A DNA stretch of 64,000 bases from Novakomyces olei (taxonomy: Eukaryota): contig JADEYG010000012.1 in NCBI GenBank assembly GCA_016906335.1, forward strand, positions 372,001 to 436,000, in the 5' to 3' direction. The position numbers and the translations under genes were made by a program. The notes under the pieces were generated by a model. It was given only the letters and a program-made list of their open reading frames with translations. It did not search any database and was not told where the DNA came from. Position 1 is the stretch's first letter. Each line of letters begins with the position of its first letter. Below, piece by piece: positions 12,976 through 64,000 of this stretch.

Positions 12976-15900
12976 TCACTCTTGCGCAAGTATGTACAGC
13001 GCAATTTGGTAGCGGCCTCTAAAAGAACAAATCCAGCACCATTTAAAGCCTTGCTCTTGAGCGCGACGCAACTCAGCCTGAATATCGTAGATATAATCGC
13101 GTCTACTGGCACTGCACTTGCTAACAAGTCGCCTCCAGCTTTCCTCATTACCGGGCGAGGTTGCCTTTAAGGCGCTAAACTCCTCCGGATCCAAATCAAT
13201 AGCATACGTTGGAACTCTCTGCGAGGATTCTAAAACTGCTGCCACTGAATCGTGCACTTTGGTCATTGCATTTTGCTTTTGCCTGCCTTTCTCTTTCCTT
13301 GGTTTTGTTGCTGAGCCCAAGAACTTTACATTCAACTCGTTTACGTCGCTGTTGCCTCCTCCAAAGCTGTTCATACTGCTACTATTAAAGCCGGACGGGT
13401 GAGCAACTGACGAAAAATTGCTTCCACCCATTCCGGCTCCTCCACTGCCTCCTCCAATGGTTGTTTTTGCGGCCCTTTTCAATCGATGATCAACTTCAGG
13501 GAGCGTTTTATTGTCCGGACAAGAGCGTAAAATTTCCTGAATCTCTCCGTATAGGAAAATGGGAATTTCATTGCGTAAAAGCTCAGAATCCTCTCCCGTT
13601 ATGAGGTTACGAACACGCCAAAACTGAGGCGCCGATGTACTGTGCCTTTGCCTTACCATTACTGTATGTGTGGCTCCACTGCCGCGAGCCCACGTTGCAA
13701 GTTCGTCATTGTTTAATACTGGCTGAGCTATATAATCACAGGCAATGCCCATGTCCCATAATTCTGTGGCGATTTCTAGCACATCGGCAATAGCAGATTT
13801 ACCAATGCTGCCTACAATAACGTCACACTGCAATTAGAATGTGGAAAGAAAAAGATCTTGAAAATTGATAAAAAATATAAATTGAAAAATATAAATTGAA
13901 AAATGAAAAAATGAAAAAATGAAATTTTAGTAATAGATAATTCAAAAAATAAAAGAAAGGTTGAAATTAAAATAAGCCAATAAGGTAATTCCAAGACATT
14001 AAAAACTATAAAATAAAATAATAAAATAACACAGAGAAGCACAGGAAAAGATCATTTAAAATATATGTTTTCCAACAGACACATTAAATACAAATCAATT
14101 GATTATACAATAAACACAAGGCAACATAATAGTACGTAATAACACAGAAAATCATGAAAATAATTTGAATAAAATATTACCCTAGGACAACCCCCTCGCT
14201 GGTTTCGCCGGGGGGATTCAAGCGACCTCTTTTGCATACTTAAATCCGTTTGGGCGACGAGCAATTCTGCCATCTTGTCCAATCTAAAAGCAACACCAAC
14301 GCACGAAATATTGGTATTTTCGCGCATGTACTGGCGCTGGAATCTTTCAATTAAAGCATCGTAGCGTCCACCGTAGCAGAGCAATTCTTTCCTTGTGGAA
14401 ACGGCAACGGCCTGTATCATAAGACCCGTGCGATCCCTCGAGGCATAATAATCATAGTTATAAACACCGAGCGGTGATAACTTCACATCAGTCTCCAGAT
14501 TGAGAGGCACTAAATAATCCCTTATTCTACGGATATGATGCAATATATCTTGCAGTCGGCCCCGATTAGCATGGAACCCGGGGACTAGAGACAATCTCCG
14601 TTCAACTTCGTCCAAATCTTCTTGAAAGTCAAATAGCTGTAGAGCATCCAGCGAGCTGGAAGGCACAAGCGACTGTTCTCGAAGCTCGTGCCTGATTTGC
14701 TGCCAAGTTGAGGTAAATCCTAATTTGCAAATAATCGATGAGAATTGATTCCGACGACCGTGATCCACTTGGCAATAATCCATGACATCATTGTATAGCC
14801 CGGAATGGTTAATGTGTATCTTGTACGCTCGAGTAGGAGGCAAAAATTGCAGTGCCTGATCAATTGCTTTTAGCAATTCTGCCTCATCCATTGCCTTGTC
14901 CGAGAGACCATCGTGCAATATATCAATGCCGGCCTCGTGGTGTGTTAGAAATTGGCCACCGCCCAAAGGATTTTCACGGAAAACCGGGCTTATAGAATGA
15001 GACTTTTTGAATCTAAAAGTCGTTGACCTGACCAGAAACCGGGCAAAAGGGAAAGTCATATCATAACAAAGCTGGACAACAGTTCCCTTGCGATCAATCA
15101 GCTTGGCCACATCGAAATTGGCGGGATTAGAGGCGGAATTGCTATGAATTCCAACGCTACTATTGCCCGGCCCCAATCGAATATCCACACAGGGATGAAT
15201 CAAAAGCTCTGGTCTTTCAATCGAGCCATGGCACCGGAAAATAGACTGTAAATACTCGCCAAGTTTAACAAACGTCAATTGCTCTAAAGCATTGATCGGC
15301 CTTTGTATAGAATCATAAACAAAATCTTGATATCTATCAGGCACCTGCTCAAACAAGGTATTCAAAAGCCGACGATAATGTGGGCTTTTAGGATCAGACA
15401 GGGCTTTAAGGCCCAATTCAACGTACTCGTCTTCCGCTTTTGTGGGCAGCAAATTGCTCTCCAGCAGCTCTCTGCTTGAAGGCCTCAGCGTAGGATTGTG
15501 CTGTAATAACTGCAGTACAATTTTAGTCTGAGGACTGTCGGTAGAAAATTCCTCCACTGTCTTCACCGCATCTGGAGACTTTCTGATGAGAGAAAGAGTC
15601 CTCACCCTCTCCATAAACGTATTGCTATGGTGCCAAAGCTCGAAAAAAATGATACCAAGCGAGTACATGTCCACTTTTGCACCGTAGGCAGAATTGCTAT
15701 GTTTAAGCAGCAACTCTGGAGCAACGTAGAGCGCCGTGCCTACTCCACTAGTTAAATCGTTCAAGTCATCCGTGATTTTTTCATTATTTCTAACGGCACT
15801 CTCACCGATTTTGCTGCTGCCATCATTGTAATCACTGTCATCGCCTCCCTGGTCAAATCGCTGTATATTAAGAGAGGCATTCTGGTACTCCGTGGCCAAT

Positions 15901-18465
15901 CCAAAATCACCGATTTTTACATTCAACCGGTCGTCAAGGAAAATATTGCTCGGCTTCAAATCTCGATGGATCATTCCCTGCTCATGAATATAGGCCAGCG
16001 CCTCCAATATCTGTCGAAAAAGCCTCCAGATTTCCGTGTCCTCCACGGCTCCATTCATCACATCCAACAGGGTTTTCCTCTCGCAAAACTCCATTTGTAT
16101 ATACAGAATGGCAGCGTAACCAGGTAGTCGCCGGACCTCTGCCGATTCCGAAGGATTCAAGGACAAAGAGGCCGTTGAACTCTCCCCCAAACTGCCTGCC
16201 TGTGACCCATGACTCGATTCTTTTGCCACATCAGAATACCCAAAGTATACTTCAACATGAGAGTCTCTGTCGCCAGCTGTTGACATTCCTCCGTAATCAT
16301 CAGCATTGAAATCAATGTTGCTTAGGCCGGACAATGACGGTGTAGCCAGCGCTTTACTGTTAGCCTCGCTGCTTGCACCAGCTTTAGCCTGTTTAAACGG
16401 ATCAGCAGAGGGCCTCATTTGCTCCTCCACCCAAGTTGCAAAGTACCTCACTATATGCTCATGATTAAGCCGGGAAAGGGTGACTACTTCCCGCAGGATT
16501 CGCCCATTTTCACGCTCGTTATCAATTAATTTGATTTTTTTAATTGCGTAATACCTTCCATCAATCCTGTTCTTGGCCTTGACTACTTCACCATACCCGC
16601 CTCGGCCGAGCACTTCAATCTCTTCAAAATCGTTCTTGTATCTTGAAAACTGGTTGAGCTTAGGTCCAAGTTCTGTGTGGCTCATTGACGATTTTGACCG
16701 GGCTGCGGCTGCCAAATCTACAGCCGACGGAGTAGCTGTTTCACCGTAATTTTCACGAGATATAAGGGCAGCAGAAGGTCGAGCTGCATGAGTTTGAGCA
16801 CCAACAAGACTATGCCCAAGCCGAACAAAATGACTTGTCAGCAGGTCTGTAGTACCGGCTCGCCTCTTTGGATCTTTTCTGAAAATTTGGGTTAAAAAAT
16901 CGATCACCGGCCGAGGCCAGGCCGCTTCAAGGGCTCGAACAGCCACAAATGGACTGGCAAAATCTTCGAGTAACGATTGTCCGTAGAGCATTTCAAAGCA
17001 AACGATTCCATAGTACCAAACATCGGCTTTTCTTGTAATCGCAGATGCTGAGGAGGACTGGTGCTGTTGAACGACCTCTTCAGGAGCTCTCCATCCTTTA
17101 GGCAGCTGATCTACCATAGAAAGAACGATATCCTGAGGTCTCTCGACGTTTTCCTGGCTCATCTGCGCCAATAGGCTGGGGAAACCTGCGTCACAAAGAC
17201 AAGCAGTGGCACGATTTCCAATCTTTTCAAGGGTCACGTTCTTCGTATGAATAGCTCCATGACACAACCCGTTTTTGTGAAGCTCAGAGAGACCTTCTAG
17301 TACGTCAATCGCCAGGGTACGAGCCTTCTCCAGCTCCAAGGAGCCACAGGCCTCTAGTAGCGAAGATAAGGATCCCAGGGGACAAAATTTCTCTACTAAA
17401 TGAAGGTTAATTCCACCCGTTTCATTTGACGAAGCCTGATACTCGTAAAGGCTGACAATGTTGGGGTGCCTGATAGTACGCAGTGACTCCAGATTGGTCT
17501 CCAAGACTTGTAAGCTCTTTCGCCCAGACGTTGACTGCCAGTATGGAGACCTGAATCTAACTGCTTTTAGTACTAGTTTTAAATCCGACTCCTTTGTAGG
17601 CGATTTTGGTTTGCACAAGTACGTGATTGATTGCTTTCCACAATAAAAAGGCACAAAGTTTGTTAGTGCGTTAAACGAAATTGATCCGGCCTTATATGGT
17701 ACGTTTATCGGCCTCTCAAAGACTATAGTTTCCGGGATTGAAACAGACGCTTTCCCATCGAGCACTAGAGCGCTATCTGAAGTCGTAGCGCCAGCATCTT
17801 TAAAAGAAGCCGCCGGCGAAGGATCTCTTGATCGATCTGAGGGAAAAGCGGCGGCAGCGTTCCGTCTTCTGTTCTTTTCCTGTCGTCTAGATTCCTTTTC
17901 AATCATTTCTTGTAGCAGCGAATCTTCTTCCCGTTGAGCCTGGTTTTGCTGGTGCAAAGCCTGGCTTCGTATTTCAGCATCCTGGGCATCTTGTGCCTCT
18001 AGCCTTTGATTACGCTCCTGATCCAGGCTAGAAAGTCTCTGCGAAATATCATTCTGCCACTCGTTCAGATGGTCCTGCACACAGCTGGCAATCTCATAAA
18101 CTGCCTCTTGTCCAACTAGCTCCCGTAATTTGCGTGCTATTAGAGCATCCAGCTCAGAGCATTGAAACTGGAATATATTATGTGAATTTGCAAGTTTCAC
18201 AGTGGGCGACGACGAACGCGGATACTGTACTGGCAAATGGAAAATGACATCAATAGAAGCCGCCTCTTTTGCATTGGACGCGTTGGCTCTCAGTTTTAGA
18301 GCGAAACGCCGCTCTGGTTTGGCCTACAGTGTTAAGACGACAAAATTAACTTTGTTCAATTACCCCCCAGGCGCTTTTAACGGGAATTTCTTGGAAATCG
18401 TCCCCGTAAATAGCCTGAATTGCTTCAACTTCCACATCCTGTTCCGACGTGGCGTCTACTTCCAT
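12976..18465 (-). CDS. GCN2: eIF2-alpha kinase Gcn2 (RWD, pseudokinase, kinase, HisRS-like and C-terminal domains)
   Basis: RWD start [17 protein letters not shown]; kinase motifs [43 protein letters not shown]; HisRS-like region with GGRYDALI. A short intron follows SAWG, and there is a 353-nt intron at 13828-14180. Confidence 0.95.
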
Positions 18466-28355: not shown

Positions 28356-31300
28356 TTATTCTGAAAAATCGCTACTATTGTCACTGGTAATTCTTGTAGC
28401 TGGGCCATCGAGGCCAGAGACCAAAAGAGACTCGTGTGGTTCGTTGGCAACGCGGATTTCTTTCTCAAGTGCTATTTGGTACAATTCACATAACCGGCCC
28501 GGTTCAAAATGCGGACAAATATCTTTTTCATAAGCCAAAAGATGCAATCGTTTGGGCAAGGGACATTGCCGAATTGCTTCCATGTAATGTGCTCGAGCAC
28601 TGTCCGGATCTTGTAAATGGAGGTCGAGTTTGATCAATAGTATCCAATATTCTGGTATGTTTCTGTGTCTGTCAGCATTGAACTCAATATAATTATTTAA
28701 TTTCTTTTATACTCATTCTAATTTTCCTCATCCATCAATGTGTCTTTTTTACACATGTTTCTTTTGTACTTATTCTTACTCTATTCTTTCGCATAAATTA
28801 CGAATAATGTTACGAGCATTCTCGTACCGCTGTGGGCTCTGCATGTTCCGTGTCTCTGCCCAGGCCATAAAAACCTGTAGTGCTGACCATTCGTACAAAT
28901 TTTTGTGCCGTACAGACTTTTGTATACGCCTCAAATGCCCACCAAACGCAAACCGGTACTCGTTGTTATAATAAAGCTGTAAAAAATTTGAATTTGCCGG
29001 GTTTACCCTTAAGCAAATATCTAAAAAAGATAAAACTTCGCGTTTTCGAAATGGCCGCTTTGTACTAGTAAAGTGGCGAAATAAAGACGCGATTTTATCA
29101 AGAAACTCCTCATAAAGCTCCTGAACATTTTGGCTCAAATCCTCGCTAAAGCAACGAGAGATAGACGCCACAGTGTCGAGAAGATTCTCCCAACTGGCTT
29201 GCTCAAAGGATAAGACGCCGAGGCACACGGCAATATCGAAAGCCTGTGAATAATTCTGCTTTGTATACTGATCCATAAAGCCGTTATTTAACATAGATTT
29301 GGCCTTGAGCAAATGAGGTTTCGCTAATGCCAACGTAGAAGCATTCAGCTTCTCCGATCCCAACTCAAGCGCATAATTAACAACCAACGCCTTTGCCGAA
29401 TCTATATTGGCATTGAGGACTTCAAGCCTTGACCAAGTAGCGACTAGGCGCCATAAACCTCTATTATCAAATCGCTTTTCACCCGATAACGAGGGTTCTG
29501 AAGCCGAAAGCATTGCAGCCACAGAAGCAAAGGACTGCATCGCTTCGTCTCGAGAATCCAAATAGTATTGCAACGTACAAAAGCATGACCAAAGCATTGA
29601 GTTTGACTGGTTTTGCTTTAGCAGTTTACGAGCATTCGGCCGGAAAACTGCTGGTTCAAGTTTAGCGAGAAGTAGAAGCCGTTTACACAGTAAAGCATCC
29701 CTGTAGTCAGGCAGTAAGGCATCCGTCTGAGACCTTGTCAATAAATTAAGTGTCATTTTCATTAGACTCTGCCAGCTAAGGCATTGGCTCACTAAATGCA
29801 ATGCTGGTGTTTGTGGATTTGAAAGATTTACAAAGTCAAACGGAGCAATTTGCGGTGCAGAATTAAAATCTTTTTCCGGATGAATCATTGCTGAAATCAC
29901 ATAGTCAATAGAATCTCCATTGACTCCATCAAGAGCAGTTGCAGTCTCTTTTAAACGTGAAGAAAAATAATCATGAATGCGCCAGTTGGAATGGCTATCT
30001 CCACAGTTACCAAGGGCCAAGTCCGCTAGCAAAGTTTGGCCCGCACCAGACTTTAGTACTAGCAAGGTCTGAGAAACGTCAGTGTACGCAACGTATCTAA
30101 AGGGATCAATGGCAGTTTTGAATTGCCGAAGACTGAGTGGCGCGTATTGGAAAACGCATTGCTCTTGCTGAGCCCATTGAGTCCAGGAGTCATTGCTTTC
30201 GAGTTTAACAGTATCTTGAACACTGCTGTCATTGGGAAAGCTGAGGGTATTACGGCCTTTATCAAACATTTCACGGACAGACTCTGGGCTCTTGTTCAGA
30301 GTATTATCAAAGTTTAGCAAAATACCAGCCTGTAAAATGGCAAGTGCAATTTCCGTGTAGCCCGTCTCCCGGTAAGTTGAAACGCACCGCATTAAAACAT
30401 ACAAGTAACATGATTCTAAGGCTTCTGTATCGTCTCCAACAGGTTTATTAGCCGAAAAGCTTGGATATTTGGCATTAGAATTGTCGGATTCGACCCTCAT
30501 CCTTTCCAGTGCCTCTCTAATAAGGTGAAAGGCATTGAAATACACATTCTGCAATCGGGAAAAAGTCATTTCTGCACTTGAAGACATTTGGAAATCAATG
30601 TAGTATTTCCAAAGAGGCAAACAGGCCGGAAATTGTCGTAAATACTGTGCAAATAGATTCCTTGACTTATCCCTCAGATTGCTACTGGCCAGCAGTTCCA
30701 TGTACCCTGAAACTAGTGGCGAAACGTCCACTGAAACATCCGTAATTGCAGCTAAAGCCTTTTCGTAAATCGACATTTTCACCTGTTGGACACTGGCAAT
30801 AGATCGCCTTTCAGTAAAAGATTTAGTTTGCGGACGGGTCATTAGCGTATTGGCCACAGCATCCTGGTGCCTTACGAGATCAATCCAATTTTGTACACGA
30901 TTGGGTTCAGTTTCTACTTGCCGAGTGAGTCTAATCGTCTCTTGTGCCAACAACGCACGGCCATTTTCGAGCGAGAGATCTGGATCTGCTTCGTTTTCGC
31001 TGTCGCTTTCACTCTCGCTAGTATCGAGCTGCCAGATTTCTCTTTGCCCTGACCTCCGTTTCGCACCACCTACAGCCATAAAAGAGCCAAACTCTGCTGC
31101 CTCTTTTGCTTTCCCGCTTCTTAAAGGCTTTGCCTGTCCAAAAGGCTCTTCCTCTAAAACCCTTTTATTCTCCAACTGCTGCTGCCTTGCTTCAATAACA
31201 ACATCTTTAGCCAAACGATCTGTACCGCGAGCAATACGCAATTGCTCCGGCAATCCGAGCACACGAGCTCCGCCAAAGCGATGGTAAAGCGGGATTGCGT

Positions 31301-31622
31301 ACCGGTAATTTGTGCCATAGACAATATTGTCTTTGTCACCCTTGATATCGATCTGATAAACCTGTGATGCTTCCTTATCTGATCTAGCACGTTTTACTGA
31401 ACCATTTTCAGCTCTTGGCTCCAGTATTATGTCTGCTCTTGCAACTGCCCTCGCGTTTCCTCCATTTTCCATGCGACGACTATTTCGGCCATGGCGATGA
31501 TTATTTACGTCCTTTTTTTCGCTCTCTTTTCCTGGCTCAGAATTCGGGTTGGGTTTGGTAGTAATCGGATTATTAAATGAGGAGAATTTCGGAACACTGC
31601 GGGGATTCGTGCCGCCGCTCAT
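28356..31622 (-). CDS. NRDE2: NRDE2/Nrl1-like nuclear RNA-processing HAT-repeat protein; 2 exons
   Basis: PKFSSF, IDIKGDKDNIVYG..IPLYHRFG, PNRVQNWIDLVRHQD and DPFRYV motifs; helical repeats; last exon AIRQCP...EKEIRV. Confidence 0.8.
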
Positions 31623-40856: not shown

Positions 40857-43800
40857 TCACATAAAAGGCGTATCCGGTATCAACCGGGTCAAAGTCGCTC
40901 TGGCTTCACGCAGCAATTCCCATCGGCAATTTGCCAGACTGGCTCTAACAGCGACAAGTAAATTACCATTCAAATTACCGCCGATAACACCGATAGCGGA
41001 AGAGTTTCCGGTCTCAGTGAGCATATGATGCACGTAATCTTCAGCAGTAAAATAAGAAAACCCTGGCTGAGGCAATTGCTGTTCCCCTTCAAAGACCTTT
41101 CCGTACCCCCAAACGACGAGAGTCGCCAAGTAAAGCGCCCAAGCTCGGACGGGAACATGATCTTGGGCTGCGCGATAAGAGACTCCACCAAAAAGCACTT
41201 CTTTTATAACCATAAGTGCCTGATAAACGGCAGGTTTTGCGTCTGCAGAGTTGCACCAGGCCATAATACGAGCACGCGCATTATAGACCTCTGACTGGCT
41301 CTGTGCACGGCCGAGTAATGATGGAGCTCCAGCTAGGGTATGAAAGTCAAAGATATTTGTCGACAATGAGATAAGAGCTATTCGGTGAAGTGCATGGCTC
41401 GCCTCCAATGGGCTCTGTGGAGTCATATAGTACAAGCGGAAAGACCAATTGTACCATGATTGAATAGCATTCTCTAATGATTTTCTTATGTCATCTGGAA
41501 GACCTGTATTCTGTGGATGTCGCAGCTGATTTACAGACGCGGAGAAGGAAAAATCGCCGAGCTCGCGCAGTCTTGTATGGTCATTCAAGCTCATAAGCCC
41601 ATGAAGCAAACAGAACCGGGAAAATGCACTCAGATAATCGGGAAGAGGCTGATTATTTACGAGTCTTTTCAGACAAAGCAAAAACGAAGGTGGCTCAGCT
41701 GCCTGGCGAACACTTGACTGCCAGTCTTGTACGGTTTTTGCGTTCCAAACTGCCTCGTCACAGGGCAACATTAGGTTTATATCATTCACGTTCAATGCTG
41801 GTAAATGTCCAAATATTGCGCAATGCTGAGCATCCATAGCAAAAGCAAAAAATGCTGTTCTCTTTGAGGCTTCCGCCTCGATCCATTGCTGCCATTTAAG
41901 TTCGAGTGAAGTAGATTCACCATTGACTTTGGATGCCTGTTCGTTATAAGCGGATCCGCGGCGCATTAACTAGATATTAGAAACTGCTAATTATAATCAA
42001 AATTAAATTAAATTAAATTAAATTAAATTAAATTAAATTAAATAAATTTAAAACCTTTTTTTATAAGATTTCAAACTAATGATACAGAATAAAGCATTGA
42101 ATACATATCGAATAAATAATTAGACAAATCAAAAACAAATCAAAAATATTGCAGTTATACCGTAATAATTGATCCATGAAAGATATGTGATAAATGGTAA
42201 TGCCGTCGAGTCGAGAACGTCTTTTCAAACACTTGCATAATGAGCAAAGTTTGCAAGATATATAATTCAGCAGGCGGCTCAAAATCTTCAGAGTCAAAAA
42301 TAAGCAGCCGCAATTTATCGTGTATTTTCCGGCTAGTTTCGTATCTCTCTTCGTCGCCGTGTAGAGTAGAGCCGAGGGTGACAATACTTATTAGCAATAA
42401 AGCAGGAATTTTTGAAGGATCGCAAGTGGGCGCGTGCAGTATGGGAAATTGGGGGTGATAATAATTGAAGTAGAGGTCAAACATTTGTGAAATATTAACA
42501 ACATCAAAGAAAGAGTTTGTTATATCCGGTATAACCGTCCTTAGGCATCGCAGCATATTCTCCCGGGCAGTGATCCACTGACTCGTCGAGTAGGACGCTG
42601 AAGTGGGCAAGACTGTGCCCGATTGTTGCTGTACAAAAGTATAAGGAATACGGTACGTTGCTGCTGTTGCTAATGCGTCTATATTAGACTTTGACTCGGA
42701 CATTGTTGGCAAAAGAGGTTGCTCGTAACCGAACTTTGACCCGCTCTTTGCTGCCTGTTTTTGATCATCAAACTGTAGAGCAAGACTGCGGTTGCTTTGC
42801 TGATTATTTGCAGTTCCCCCAGGCACATTCTTCGCCGGCTGGTATATGGGTAAAGGCCCTCTTTCACGTGCAGAATGAGGGTGTGGATGAAAAGGAGGAG
42901 AAGTGTCCCTGTTACCTTCAAACATCCAACTCCCACTTGTTAGAGGCACATGCTCATGCTCATTATTAGCCGGAGATTTGTTAAACAGTGGAGTTGAGTG
43001 GAAAGTAGAGTGGTCTTGCAGATTTATACGGTCGTGTATACTCTGACGATGCTGTTGCAAATCAGTAAATGATCTCATCCCGGGCAGCTGCTGATTGGAA
43101 AGGTTTGGAGGCTGATAAGGATCAGATAATTCTCCATGCGGAGGCGCCTGCGAAAATGCACTTGCCGGGTGAGGCGGAGCTGCTGCCGCTGTCGGTGTTG
43201 CTGAGCCAGTATGAGGAAACTGAGGATTCGGGAAATTTAATCGAGGTTCAGGAGTGTAAGCATAATCGATTGAAGCCGGTGTCATTGATGTATTAGGCTC
43301 GAGAAACGGTCGCATGTGATGATTGCTGTTGTCGTTGTTTGTTGTACTATTGCTCTGATTACTGTTGTGGTTTTTATTGTGATTTTTGTTATGGTTTTTA
43401 TTGTTATTATTCCCTGTCCAGGTGCCCGTAGGTGTTTGTTCCTGTTGCGGTACATGGCTGGCTAGAGCTTCAGGATGTAATTTATCGTTGATTCTATCGC
43501 CCGTAACCCTTTCATCAATCTCGTGATTATGAAGGGCTGTGTGCGTTGAATCCAGTCTAGAGCTTGAAGAGGCTCTCGGACTCGAAGTTGAAACTGCCGC
43601 GTAACTGTTGCTCGGAGTCAGTTCAGGACCACGAGTGCGTTCTTGAGTCTGACTGACTGAGGCGAGCCCTTCATTCGAGGCAGAACTATTGCTCAGAAAC
43701 TGATAAGTAGGATACAGAGCATCGGAAGAGCCGTGGCCAACAGGTCCAGGATTGGGAGCAGCAGCATCAACAGTGTTACTCACTAACGATCCGGGAGTAC

Positions 43801-44592
43801 TTGTGCTTGGAGCCGGAGTAGGCCCGGTTGAGGACATGTCAACAATCCTATGTGGACCTTTAGAAATGAGTCCTCCGGGAGTGAGTGAAGACGACTCCTT
43901 ACTGTCGCTATCACTGCCACCAGCGCCGGCACTTGAGCTTACATGCTCTAAAGCAGCAGCTGCTGCTGCTGCTACAGAATCCTCGTCTTGATCGTCGGGA
44001 TACTGGATGATTTGGGATTCGATAATGCCTCCTGTTTTCCTGTACCACATTCCATTATCATGCCGTTTCTGGTGCCGTTCGAGTAAGTCGCGCCGTACAA
44101 ACTTCTTGGGGCATTGCGGGCACTGAAAGATTTGCTTAGGCTGGTCTGGTTGAATTAGTATAACCCGGTCGATGCGTATAATTGAGAGTAATAAAAGATA
44201 ATAATAAAAAGAAAGCCACGTTAAAGGCACCAATCTGAGGCAGGCCAGAGTAATTAATTAATGCAAATGTGAATAAAGATATGCCAAAGTATAAACAAAG
44301 AAATGCTAAAGCAAAAAACCCTAAAGCAAAAGATGGTCAAGCAAACTATAGTAAAGCAAAGAAATGGTAAAAGCGCTGTCAGACCGCAAGATCAGCAGTA
44401 GCGTGTTGTGGGAGAAAGAATCCCTGCACTCTAAAATAACGGGCAAAGCAAGCAAAAGCTAAAAAGAGCCATACGATTAAGCCGGTGCCGTGCGAGATGC
44501 TCTGATCGCAAGAACGCCTTTCCGCAGCCTGGCACTCTGCAAATATAATTGCGAGGTCTGTCTGATTCGAGGCTCTTGCGAACCGCAGGCAT
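40857..44592 (-). CDS. Two-finger C2H2 transcription factor with a fungal-specific TF domain (Klf1/Zas1/Rsf2-type architecture); 3 exons
   Basis: Exon 1 YICRVPGCGKAFLRSEHLARHRLN|H; exon 2 FQCPQCPKKFVRRDLLERHQKRH, N/Q/H-rich linker and YFNYYHPQFPILHAPT; exon 3 WQQWIEAEASKR and LPCDEAVWNA. Confidence 0.88.
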
Positions 44593-57473: not shown

Positions 57474-58394
57474 TTTGTCAAGTAGACGAATTGAGCCTAA
57501 TTCAATGTATAACAATCCTTTCTTTGGGTGTAGTGAAATTTGCGCTGTATGCAAATCTGCCGGTAATCCAGCAAATAAATCTGTATCGCCTTAAAGCCCA
57601 CTTTGCACAATGTATTCGCTTCTGAATCCTAGTTTCGAGAATCTCGTTGCGAGATATCAATTATGAGCGCAGTAAGTTTGACAAGTCTGAGCCCTTCAAT
57701 GCATTCTGTGGCAGAGTGAACGATAGATGACTCGCAATATCTTTGCGCCAGACACCTGGTTTGTTTTGATTGTAATATATATTGTTTATTTATTATTTAT
57801 TTGGTGATCGAGACTCACCTTCTTTCCTTTTGCGGACTATGCTTCTGTGCAGGGTTTTCTTACGCACATCAATGGCTCGGGTAGACCTAATTTAGCGCGA
57901 TAATTTCACGCCTCAGGTATTATGTCTATTTTAGGACTAATTTAGGACAAAACTGTCCCAATGGGACTAGTGTGTAATTAAGACCAAGTAATCAAGGGTT
58001 AGCCTTAACGCGTATCGATCGCGAGCCGCAGTGGGGACAAATAATGTACTGTGAAAATGATACTATAGTACGATAATAATGCTACACTAAAATATCGATA
58101 CCAGCTTGGTAATATTTGTACGTGTTAAATGTGCACTCGTATCATAACTTTAATTGTTGGGTATTTAAAGAATACGTTGTGGGCAGATTACGTTTAGGCT
58201 AATTATTTCATTTGGTGCCTCTGTACTATATAAACTTTATGCCTTTTTAACGGGTCAACAACGGTCTCTGTTTCACATAGGACAGTGCGCAGATCTTAAC
58301 TTGCTGAATTGGTACTGCGTCCGCCTACCTCCTACGTGTTTTTTATTTTTTGGTCTTATTTTCCATACTAAATTTATCGCGAAATGTTCAATAT

Positions 58395-58737
<343 letters not shown>

Positions 58738-58750
58738 GGTTATGAGCCTG
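58738..58750 (+). other. Primer-binding site complementary to the initiator tRNA-Met anticodon stem-loop
   Basis: GGTTATGAGCCTG directly after the 5' LTR; the reverse complement CAGGCTCATAACC contains the CAT anticodon. Same type as in Ty5 and Drosophila copia. Confidence 0.85.
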
Positions 58751-58829
58751 GAAGGTGATTGTTGAATTTCAAACTCAAGATACCGCTCGCTGTCTTTTAA
58801 TAAAACTATTTCTCTTATTCAAAGCTCAA

Positions 58830-59786
58830 ATGGCTGATGTCAATGTCACCCCCGGACAGGCATCTAGCATCAGAAATAATACTATTATTCTTGGAGTCAT
58901 CCCTCAATTGAAAGATTGGCATTCCTATCTGGAGTGGAGAATTAAAATCAAAAATAGACTTGAATTACATGGCCTTTCATCGCTGCTAGACAATTCTGTC
59001 GACACAACTACAGTGTCGAATGTGAGCACACTAATAGTCACGGCTGAACTAGTCGAAGCAATAAGTGGGGATCTTCTTGGACCCCGAATCGAAGGGCTCA
59101 AAACCCCTCAAAAACTATTTGAACTACTGGACACCGAATTCGAAAAAAGAAAGCATCAAGTGACCGAATCCATTGTATCAAAATTTATGAATCCGTCGAA
59201 ACTATGGAATGGAGACCCGGAAAACTTTATTACGGAATACAGAAAACAAATCGTAAATTTAGTTCGACTCGGCTACACGGAACTCACCTACTTTGCCTAT
59301 TGCGGCATACTTTCTGCAATACCTCGCGACATTGCAAATACAATCCGACACAACGTGAGCTCCACTATTAATTCTGAGACCCACGTATTTGATCTACTTG
59401 ACCTTATCGATAATGAACTAATTTATTACACAATGGATAAGACTTCCTATTCCGGAAATGGAGCCCACCATATTCCTGTTCGAGGAGAAGAATCTACCTA
59501 TCATATCAACAGATCAAATCAAAATTTCAAAAGTGGAAACAATGGATATAGCGATAAGGCTGAGAGACAGTCTAAAAAGTCTGTTAACAAATGCGGTTAC
59601 TGCGATAAGAATGGCCACAAAACAAATGACTGCTTTAAGAATCCTAATGGGAAAAACGCAAGATACTGTAACAATTGCAGAATATATGGACATTTGACAA
59701 AAGATTGCAGAAAACATGAATACAAAAATTCAAAAAAACAATCGGTGTATAACGTAAAGATTAACAATACTGAGCCTATCCTGTGA
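58830..59786 (+). CDS. gag: Gag with two CCHC zinc knuckles
   Basis: LKDWHSYLEWRIKIKNRL copia Gag N-terminus; CGYCDKNGHKTNDC and CNNCRIYGHLTKDC; ends TGA at 59784-59786. Confidence 0.92.
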   Translation: MADVNVTPGQASSIRNNTIILGVIPQLKDWHSYLEWRIKIKNRLELHGLSSLLDNSVDTTTVSNVSTLIVTAELVEAISGDLLGPRIEGLKTPQKLFELLDTEFEKRKHQVTESIVSKFMNPSKLWNGDPENFITEYRKQIVNLVRLGYTELTYFAYCGILSAIPRDIANTIRHNVSSTINSETHVFDLLDLIDNELIYYTMDKTSYSGNGAHHIPVRGEESTYHINRSNQNFKSGNNGYSDKAERQSKKSVNKCGYCDKNGHKTNDCFKNPNGKNARYCNNCRIYGHLTKDCRKHEYKNSKKQSVYNVKINNTEPIL

Positions 59787-62700
59787 CTAGGTAACAAAGG
59801 GACACCTGGAGATATCACTGAGTGGATTCTCGATACAGGGGCCACTAGTCACATATGCTCAGATATCAAATACTTTAATAAAATAAATTACATCAGATCC
59901 ACTATTCAAACAGGGAAGGACAATTGCTCTCCCGTATCAGGAATTGGAACAATAATTTTAAAAGTTAGGGATGACCTGGGATCAACGCTGATCCTATCAA
60001 ACGTCTTATATGCCCCTAAGTACGGCACAAATTTATTCAATCCGCTCATTCTACAGGCATTCAGTGGAAAAAATTCCATGACAATTGCCGAATCTAAGTT
60101 AACGTTAATGAGCAACGCAAAACCAATTATGCGACTCAAGAAAAATAATAATATATTTTATTTCACTGCAAAACCAATCTATCATAACGAATACATTTCA
60201 AATTCTGTTACTGAAGATAGTGCCGAAAAGGCAAAACTGTGGCACGAAAGGCTAGGCCACACAAATAAACAGTACCTGCTAGAGCTGATAAACGGAAAAG
60301 CCACAGGGAAAATACAATTAATTAAAATCAACGATATTGAACCATGTCATACATGTACAACAGCAAATATAACTCGGGAACCCTTCCCAAATACGGGGAG
60401 AAGCAGACCAACAGGTCTATTTGACCTGGTGCACAGCGACGTGTGCGGGCCTATCAATCTAAATTCTGAATTTAATTACAAATACTTCGTTACATTTATA
60501 GAAGACCTGTCGGGCTTCACGTTCATAAAATTGATGAAGAATAAAAATGAAGTCACCCAAATCTTCGCAGAGTTAATTCCATTTGTTAAAACACAATTTG
60601 GAAAAATGATAAAAACATTAAGAACAGACAACGGTCTGGAATACATCAATGCCGAAATTCATGAACTGTGCAAAAAACATGGCATTATACACCAAACTAG
60701 CACCGCTTACACTCCACAGCAAAATGGAGTAGCGGAACGCGCAAATCGAACAATATTATCGAAGGCACGAAGCCTACTACTAGCACGCAAAGTCCCGATA
60801 AAATTCTGGAGTGATGCTGTGGTCACTAGTTGCTACCTGAAAAATCGACTACCAACTAGAATAGCACCAAAGACTCCGTACGAAACAATCTACAAAAGAC
60901 CTCCGAATCTGGACAATCTGAAAGTGTTTGGTTGCTTGGCAATAGCACTGGACAAGCACGCCAATAACAAAACCAAGCTGGAACAAAGAGGAGATGAATA
61001 CATTTTTATCGGCTACTCTGAAACACAGAAAGGCTACATACTGTCCAATCTCAAAAATGGGAAAAGAATCGTATCTCGAAATGTCAAATTCCTTGAAAAC
61101 GAACAGATTAATAATTCCACTGCTACTGATTATAATGAAAATCAAATATACAGCGAACTTACATACAAAAATAATACTGAAGCCGATACGGAGAATAAAA
61201 GGGACCACGACACAACTCATCCCACGCAAGGGATCAACACAACTATAATTGACAATCTACCAAAGCTAAGTAGTGAACTGTCAAACAAGGTACCTGAACA
61301 AATCAAATCGCCAAATAGTCTATCAAATACTCTCGAAACGCCCCAAACTCCGCCTGATGATACGTTAAATATTAACAAAAATTCTGAAAATCCCACGCAA
61401 GCCAATTCTGAGGAAAATCAGTCATCTGACAACCTAAAGGACTCGATCGAAGACTCAACAGAGCCAAGTGGAAATAAATCAAATACAGACGATGAGGAAA
61501 GTGACGACCCTCAATCAAACATGGAAATTGACAATAATTTAAAGAACATTGAATCAAAAAATAATTCTATAATTGAAATAGAAGAGGAACCAAGCCTAGA
61601 GCTTATCAGCCCAGGAAATCAACCTGCGCGAAAAAGAAAAACGTCATCAGAGCAACTAGGAGACGAAAAATTCAGAAAAATAGACCCGCTGCAGGAAATC
61701 CTTTCTGGTGAAAGAAAATTAAATCTTGAAGGGATCTCCAAAGAAAAATTGAAGAAAATCCTTCCCCCCCTTTTCCTTAAAAATGGTCAAAGGAAAATAT
61801 TAAACAGACCCAAAGGAGGCGTTAATCACATTGAAGCTCCTGACATTGAGCCTCAAAATTACAATGAAGCAATCACTGGGCCATTTGGGAATCAGTGGAA
61901 AGAAGCAATAAATAAAGAACTAAAAGCAATGGAAAGAAATGAAGTATGGAAAGTCGTTCCCCAATCACAAAATATACGTACAGTTGGATGCAGATGGGTG
62001 TTTAAACTGAAACAAGGAGAACAGTCGAATGAAATAATTAGAAAAGCAAGACTAGTAGCACAAGGGTACTCACAGATTTTTGGAAAAGACTATGAAGATA
62101 CATACGCCCCAGTCGCTCGTCCTGACAGCATACGGTGGTTATTAGCCTACAGCGTAATTAAAAATTATGAAATCTATCAAATCGACGTGGATACAGCCTT
62201 CCTATATGGTACACTAAAGGAGTCAGTGTACATGAAAAAACCCGATGGAGTGAAATTAAACCCGGCCTTGTCCTAAAATTAAACAAAAGTCTCTATGGTC
62301 TCAAACAGGCACCAAGATCGTGGAACAGTGAACTGGATTCTACATTGACAAAATACGGTCTAACAAAATCAAACAAAGATTCTGCCATATATTACAATGA
62401 CTCTTTAATTATTGCTGTCTACGTAGATGACCTCATGATCGTCGAAAAACAGAAAGGAAAGAGACTTGAATTTGAATCCTTTTTGAAAACATTTTACTCC
62501 ATCAAGTCACTTGGAAAAATAAAGAGATATCTTGGTATGGACATTACATATGATCGCGACAAAGGAATACTCAAATTGTCACAGTCACAATTTGCTAAGT
62601 CAATTATACGCACTTACGGAGACACTAACCTAAAATACATAAGTCAGCCCATCACAAACATCAATTCACTCTATCATCCCGCGGTTGAAAATTATGATTG

Positions 62701-63375
62701 TCTGGAAATCTATCCAACTATTATAGGAAAATTAATATATTTGACCGAATGGACAAGACCAGACCTCAGATTTGCAATAAGTATGTTAAGCAAACATACA
62801 AAAAGACAAAATGAAGAACAAATACAGGCCTTAAAACACACTATGAGATATCTAAACGCTACACTGGACACATGTATCACCTACACTAGAGAAAATGATC
62901 TACAGATACACTCGTGGGGCGACTCTGATTTCGCCGGAGACACTTGCGACAGAAAATCCCGATCAGGATACGTTGTCTCACTAGGAAAAATAACGGCCCA
63001 ATAGCCTGGAACTCGCAAAAGCAAAAAATTGTAACACCAAGTACAATGATGGCGGAGTTCGAAGCTATGAAACTAACAGTCAATCAAGCCTTGTACTACA
63101 AATATCTAATGGACGAAATTAATAAAGGGCCCGATAACATCCCAATCGTCTACTGCGATAACAACGCCTGCATATTACTTGCAACTAATGGTGGAAACTA
63201 CCAGGGTTCAAAACATCTAAGTAACACCTGCTACTATGTGATGGATATTGTGAGAAATGGACTGATAAGCATACAGAGATGCCCCTCACGAAACATGAAG
63301 GCAGATGGATTGACCAAGAACCTACTTGGAAACAAATTCACTAAATTTACAAAAATGCTATACAATGAAGAATAA
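59787..63375 (+). CDS. pol: Pol (protease, integrase, RT, RNase H), in frame with gag after one TGA; two 1-nt frame breaks in this sequence
   Basis: WILDTGATSHIC protease; WHERLGH..CHTC and D-D-E integrase; KARLVAQGYSQ, SLYGLKQAPRSW and YVDD RT; DSDFAG..CDN..ADGLTK RNase H. Frame breaks near 62260 and 62988. Confidence 0.92.
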
Positions 63376-63420
63376 CAAAAAAAAATAAATACAAGAATAC
63401 AAAAAGGAAATAAAAGATTC

Positions 63421-63428
63421 AAGGGGAG
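63421..63428 (+). other. Polypurine tract
   Basis: AAGGGGAG, within a longer purine-rich run, abuts the 3' LTR. Confidence 0.85.
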
Positions 63429-63774
<346 letters not shown>

Positions 63775-64000
63775 AATATATATAATTCAAGGATCAATTT
63801 CTACTCCTTTAACTAAATTGAACGTTCAAGGATATATTAATGATCAGCCTGTCTCAAAATGATTATTGCTCAAATAGTTTCGGCTCCATGTGATTAAGAA
63901 CACGGAAACGTCTTTTGAAAAAGAGTAATAGATATAAAATTCAAATGCACCTCTTTACCCTGCTCGTTCTATTCACACTGCCAAATTCGTTTGGTCTGCC

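Follow-up and report, generated by a model that had tools for sequence, protein, structure and literature searches.

Ty1/copia retrotransposons seldom carry an in-frame stop codon that parts gag from pol, and the sole case studied so far, Tca2 (also called pCal) of Candida albicans, resists explanation. Tca2 is an active element that carries gag-UGA-pol in one reading frame (PMC2194720; PMC7175516), and its Pol is made from full-length RNA driven by the long terminal repeat (LTR) (PMC2194720). Here we describe a Ty1/copia LTR retrotransposon of 5,380 bp, located at positions 58395-63774 (+) of a 64,000-nucleotide stretch of Novakomyces olei DNA (contig JADEYG010000012.1, positions 372,001 to 436,000; the whole stretch is hereafter called the window). 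As in Tca2, gag and pol of this element are separated by a single in-frame UGA. In Tca2, however, the UGA is followed by the purine-rich spacer AAAACAGG and a predicted pseudoknot, whereas in the element described here CUAG comes next and no structure is predicted. The two were compared by description, and the best Pol matches to our element found anywhere are 33-40% identical.

Several other systems are relevant to this junction. Among fungal copia elements, VdLTRE5 of Verticillium dahliae offers a second instance of gag-UGA-pol, a layout that its authors termed very rare (PMC3441728); it has 159-bp LTRs, two copies and no CARYYA motif (PMC3441728), and it is likened to the present element by description. 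Tca5 is a single open reading frame (ORF) (PMC4139406). In the fission-yeast Ty3/gypsy elements Tj1, Tcry1 and Tosmo1-3, a strictly conserved GAA-TGA-CT, followed by A or G, lies between Gag and Pol, and the authors explicitly tied this stop to the readthrough contexts C, CT and CTAG (PMC10085805); removal of the stop abolished transposition of Tj1 (PMC4600332). These elements belong to another superfamily, have the gypsy domain order and carry GAA upstream of the stop, whereas the element described here has CUG upstream and the full CTAG downstream. The context UGA-CU(A), with G at +4 noted, was found by experiment to terminate weakly in Ustilago and in HeLa cells, and cellular readthrough at UGA-CU(A)(G), known from peroxisomal isoforms in Ustilago and animals and from four mammalian genes, requires no RNA structure (PMC4207609). 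Our element matches this site pattern, with C, U, A and G at +4 to +7; cellular readthrough, however, adds short C-terminal extensions to host proteins, whereas about 1,196 polyprotein codons would follow the stop in this case. In murine leukemia virus, the in-frame stop of gag-UAG-pol gives about 5% Gag-Pol (PMC2194720), and an 8-nt spacer and a pseudoknot are required, for which no counterpart was found at the junction of the element. A full-text search of the literature, with supplements outside its reach, returned no copia element with UGA-CUAG. The first-pass annotation of this DNA had presented the layout as a rarity shared with Tca2; the likeness to Tca2 stands, but the novelty was overrated, since VdLTRE5 (PMC3441728) and the fission-yeast gypsy context (PMC10085805) had been published.

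The junction reads ...ATC CTG TGA CTA GGT AAC AAA GGG..., with TGA at 59784-59786 and CTAG at 59787-59790, and is translated as ...NNTEPIL*LGNKGTPGDITEWILDTGATSH... The stop-to-stop frames 58746..59786 and 59787..62276 share one phase, and TGA 59784 is the sole in-frame stop in 1,512 codons; the 1,141 frame-0 codons between 58830 and 62252 comprise one TGA, no TAA and no TAG. The continuation of gag in the same frame beyond its TGA, claimed in the first-pass annotation, was thereby confirmed by sequence, frames and translation, as was the position of the stop at the Gag/protease boundary, 25 codons past the second CCHC knuckle and 15 codons ahead of the protease DTGA motif. A BLASTP comparison with a single-ORF Gag-Pol (P0004, E 7e-82) was collinear from the knuckle through the stop into protease and integrase. 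In the coding frames of the element, 694 single-base changes could produce a nonsense codon; of these, 178 created TGA, 32 TGA-C, three TGA-CTA and two TGA-CTAG, and 21 fell within the 41-codon linker that extends from the last CCHC to DTGA. Because 2/694 changes give TGA-CTAG and 21/694 lie in the linker, a random nonsense change with such a position and context is unlikely, although the site was chosen post hoc.

Three public DNA runs (X1, X2 and X3), which come from two studies, contain 90-94% of the element's sampled words, and their contigs were compared with the window over positions 58739-63428. In the window, pol beyond the integrase is spread over three frames (59787..62276, 62171..63004 and 62929..63375), and both breaks fit the absence of one base from an A-run, at 62253-62255 and 62986-62990. 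All three runs have an extra A behind 62252 and another behind 62985 at full depth (27.5/27.5 in X1, 6.24/6.24 in X2, and 7312.6/7312.6 and 8045.3/8045.3 in X3). Because of the extra A at both sites and the overlap of the window frames, pol in X1, X2 and X3 is one ORF that extends from 59787 to the TAA at 63373-63375. TGA-CTAG is retained in 3/3 of these element-containing runs, with no alternative letter at the stop or in its context. Record 1 of X1 (58739-61956, three differences) and record 7 of X2 (59727-61400) differ from the window only at positions away from the stop and its context, while record 10 of X3 (59159-59869) has no differences and carries the entire depth of those bins. Nine sites show an alternative letter in a DNA run, none of them at the stop (59900, 60659, 61007, 61068, 61764, 62147, 62685 and 63229 are among them), and some are at intermediate depth within X3. 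These nine sites indicate that more than one variant of the element exists, and the stop and an intact pol coexist in every variant seen. A sense codon in other copies or reads, which the first-pass annotation had named as something to look for, was thus not encountered in the three runs. Its description of pol as open through the integrase is correct, but the two single-nucleotide A-run deletions further downstream in the window had been overlooked. These two frameshifts are errors in the assembly consensus or else changes confined to the window copy.

Some side observations on the reads may be added. A further single-A homopolymer difference between window and contigs lies at 63376 in some runs; if the A-run differences are consensus errors, similar false frameshifts are possible in other ORFs of the assembly. 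In X3, the element is covered at a word depth of about 8,000-30,000 by 284 contig records, many of them short. Such depth is not equal to copy number; that the element is present in very many copies or as extrachromosomal DNA, as described for Tca2, is conceivable. Strain polymorphism was considered as the cause of the element's absence from other runs of organism A and was dropped, the contigs comprising about 950 million letters in X1 and X2 versus 18 million in X3. Organism A may have a large genome, or its runs may stem from a mixed sample in which the fungus is just one component.

Judging from the sequence, we think it probable that gag ends at a programmed stop that is bypassed at low frequency by CUAG-favoured readthrough of UGA, with decoding by a near-cognate tRNA. 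According to this model, gag and pol of an autonomous-type element would lie in one frame, parted by the programmed UGA, at which most ribosomes would terminate to give Gag. A small fraction of ribosomes would decode the UGA with a near-cognate tRNA, as the 3' context CUAG terminates poorly, and would produce a fusion of Gag with protease, integrase and reverse transcriptase (RT)/RNase H; the Gag:Gag-Pol ratio would thereby be set. The 120 nt from the stop folded no better than shuffled sequences (minimum free energy z -0.47; 55/200 shuffles as good), and a crude script found no H-type pseudoknot with stems of at least 5 bp that starts 5-13 nt past the stop. Since no 3' structure was found, readthrough, if it occurs, relies on the short context alone. 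The first-pass annotation had interpreted the site as a host-type readthrough signal, and its arguments from the anatomy, the CUAG context, the lack of an upstream ATG and the youth of the element hold; readthrough itself as the bypass, and the four-nucleotide context as its driver, are what we infer. That an orphan copia lineage independently evolved gag-UGA-pol, with the Gag:Gag-Pol ratio set by CUAG alone and by no RNA structure, is a more tentative proposal, towards which we are nearly neutral and slightly doubtful.

Several points weigh against readthrough at this site. The codon 5' of the stop, CUG, lacks the AA by which readthrough is promoted in S. cerevisiae (PMC10085805). For Tca2, a 300-nt stretch around the gag UGA was read through at 0.3% in S. 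cerevisiae, a level equal to that of a control stop, or background (PMC2194720); predicting readthrough from sequence has therefore already failed once in a copia element. Protein and metagenome searches found no close relatives, which leaves nothing to compare, and all copies of the element seen are near-identical, so that the stop cannot be called conserved over any evolutionary distance. Contigs, moreover, lose rare variants, and a minor master copy with a sense codon could be hidden. Finally, RNA run X5 contributed only three low-complexity poly-A reads on the element, which have no weight either way.

Among the other explanations, we regard as highly improbable that a spliced mRNA removes the stop or that UGA is a sense codon in the host. 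Drosophila and plant copia-type elements balance Gag and Pol through splicing (PMC5580714), and splicing had been considered for Tca2 by Forbes et al. In the present element, however, a GTRNGT donor is missing from gag (58830-59786), the region 58739-60600 has no match to any of 16 yeast 5' splice-site and branch-point motifs (TACTAAC included), and no in-frame intron candidates were found. Because gag lacks a GTRNGT donor, a stop-removing splice appears unlikely, and the GGTAAC to which the first-pass annotation had pointed as a possible splice site is located 3' of the stop and is thus unable to remove it. As for reassignment, TGA terminates 7/15 host ORFs of at least 250 aa, one of them as a tandem TGA-TGA, so UGA is, by the evidence of these ORFs, not a general sense codon in the host; within the first 1,141 codons of the element, TGG occurs ten times and TGA once. 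Least probable of all, to the point of being negligible, is an origin of the stop from misassembly of the window. Single-nucleotide A-run indels do separate the window from the contigs at 62252 and 62985, and at 63376 in some runs, but those differences are homopolymer indels rather than substitutions, and TGA-CTAG is exact in the three runs.

A more serious competitor, though still an unlikely one, is that the stop is programmed and the full-length RNA is used, but that the bypass is non-canonical, as proposed for Tca2, and depends on remote cis signals, a host-specific factor, or non-AUG or internal initiation. Pol of Tca2 follows the LTR promoter, yet its 300-nt junction, with a weak internal promoter, showed no readthrough in S. 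cerevisiae (PMC2194720), and the absence of a stimulatory structure by the folding and pseudoknot searches described above would suit such a mechanism in our element as well. On the other hand, the element possesses the tested leaky context UGA-CUAG, unlike Tca2 with its spacer, and no in-frame ATG stands ahead of the protease site. Past the stop, no in-frame ATG occurs until 60078, as the first-pass annotation had said; this ATG lies 82 codons beyond the protease active site (DTGA 59832), and internal initiation at an AUG would omit that active site. Improbable, in our view, is that the TGA arose by nonsense mutation and that the lineage carrying it is defective and mobilised in trans by the Pol of another element, with CTAG and the boundary position being coincidental. 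The two pol frameshifts of the window copy would fit such a lineage, as would the seemingly decayed 3/55 distant copia loci in which an in-frame stop (TAA, TAA and TAG, respectively) lies close to the boundary, and a rare copy with a sense codon could be hidden by the contigs. However, the frameshifts are absent from 3/3 read sets while TGA is present in 3/3, the joint position and context are improbable by the enumeration given above, the LTRs are near-identical with an intact target-site duplication, and the window contains no second copia element. The objection to a random nonsense mutation raised in the first-pass annotation is thus upheld by the enumeration and by the presence of the stop together with an intact pol in the reads, and programmed UGA readthrough remains the explanation that we favour.

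The searches for relatives were conducted at the level of both proteins and metagenomes. A search that spanned the junction gave 33 matches, the best of which are 29-31% identical, and all are of the fused Gag-Pol type; in a gag search at near lengths, none of 822 candidates scored. The best matches in a full HMMER search with the protease-integrase-RT region had 33-40% identity, and the highest scores went to multi-copy gene models from an alga, a plant and a pseudoscorpion. In these protein searches, no match to Pol exceeded 40% identity. Looked up by exact sequence, gag, pol and three proteins of the host were all absent from the collection (0/5 present). A first metagenome scan yielded no relatives, and a second one (alignment A1) retained 80 loci with 26-41% identity. 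In a survey of the junctions of these 80 loci, 25 without a match to the protease regular expression were excluded and 55 were assessed. A single ORF, defined as at least 200 same-frame codons upstream of the protease, was present in 29/55, and 23/55 were ambiguous. The remaining three (L023, L039 and L063) have an in-frame stop (TAA, TAA and TAG, respectively) 22-31 codons upstream of the protease aspartate, after a same-frame ORF with CCHC; TGA-CTAG was found in none of the 55. Each of these three loci lacks 650 uninterrupted pol codons, and they may be either decayed copies or further copia lineages with an in-frame stop. They lie outside the FastTree phylogeny, which was built from the window Pol and 20 loci with at least 650 uninterrupted codons, and in which the window Pol stands alone on a long branch without supported kin, making the tree uninformative. 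The survey of distant copia loci therefore points to the in-frame stop as a derived and rare state among copia elements.

The remaining anatomy is that of a Ty1/copia element (Table 1), with the order Gag-protease-integrase-RT (RVT_2), TG...CA ends of the LTRs, a 5-bp target-site duplication, a primer-binding site and a polypurine tract. Pfam matches follow in copia order: Pol_BBD (332-404), gag_pre-integrs (443-510), rve (533-629), SH3_retrovirus (688-759) and RVT_2 (1037-1143). By language-model features, gag is similar to copia-type Gag clusters. The last pol segment (P0002, 148 aa) had no Pfam match at E ≤0.001 and, on a reading of the sequence by eye only, resembles copia RNase H. The primer-binding site is presumably complementary to the anticodon stem-loop of initiator tRNA-Met, like those of Ty5 and copia; no tRNA genes were found in the window. 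The sole difference within the LTR pair is one TAA unit, extra in the 3' copy, in agreement with the first-pass annotation, which had called the LTRs essentially identical. With one microsatellite unit separating its LTRs and an intact 5-bp target-site duplication, the copy is young, that is, recently inserted. The microsatellite in question, (TAA)n of 33-34 units, lies in U3 near the 5' end of each LTR. Between the SH3-like domain of the integrase and RT, there is a low-complexity linker of about 250 residues, rich in Asn, Ser, Glu and Asp and without a Pfam match. No other copia elements were found within the window.

Table 1. Features of the retrotransposon in window coordinates.
Feature	Position	Strand	Basis or remark
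Target-site duplication AATAT, left copy	58390..58394	+	Direct reading; same 5 bases after 3' LTR
5' LTR, 343 bp, TGTTG...CAACA	58395..58737	+	
(TAA)n run, 99 nt, in 5' LTR	58423-58521		
Primer-binding site GGTTATGAGCC, abutting 5' LTR	58738..58748	+	Sequence reading
gag ORF, 318 codons + TGA, from ATG 58830	58830..59786	+	
Two CCHC zinc knuckles (59592-59633, 59667-59708)	59592..59708	+	Regular expression; Pfam zinc-knuckle match, residues 279-293
In-frame stop TGA + CTAG context (UGA-CUAG)	59784..59790	+	
pol frame segment 1: protease (DTGA 59832-59843), integrase, RT start	59787..62252	+	Pfam
Low-complexity linker	61100-61900		P0003 residues about 760-1010
A-run with one A missing in window (frameshift 1)	62253..62255	+	
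pol frame segment 2: remaining RT	62256..62985	+	RVT_2 profile positions 109-242 (P0001)
A-run with one A missing in window (frameshift 2)	62986..62990	+	
pol frame segment 3, C-terminal, TAA at 63373-63375	62991..63375	+	
Polypurine tract CAAGGGGAG, abutting 3' LTR	63420..63428	+	Sequence reading
3' LTR, 346 bp	63429..63774	+	
(TAA)n run, 102 nt, in 3' LTR	63457-63558		
Target-site duplication AATAT, right copy	63775..63779	+	Direct reading

The host genes in the window are fungal and encode Zn2Cys6 'Fungal_trans' factors, a GCN2-like kinase, NRDE-2 and a phosphodiesterase; the best match of the phosphodiesterase ORF is 31% identical, and its matches extend across several fungal phyla. The GCN2-like kinase, which has a HisRS-like domain, and the NRDE-2 family protein are among the host genes at 14106-17906 (-) and 28779-31622 (-). 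The NRDE-2 family is linked to RNA interference and nuclear RNA surveillance, and its member here may be relevant to transposon control in the fungus. The adjacent ORFs at 40860-41966 and 42158-44050 (-) carry consecutive halves of Fungal_trans (profile positions 2-122 and 132-261), and this split of a Zn2Cys6 factor gene reflects either an intron or another 1-nt frameshift of the assembly.

The element is an LTR retrotransposon with an in-frame stop in a superfamily where this is rare, and its context has already been discussed for fungal gypsy elements. It does not establish a new category, the same logic being already in print for those elements. What it does is join the gag-UGA-pol layout to a short, portable and experimentally validated leaky context, without competing signals. 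If the proposed mechanism is true, this would be the cleanest natural copia case of context-only readthrough in a fungus, in contrast to the bypass in Tca2, and it could show copia elements borrowing the host's own readthrough context.

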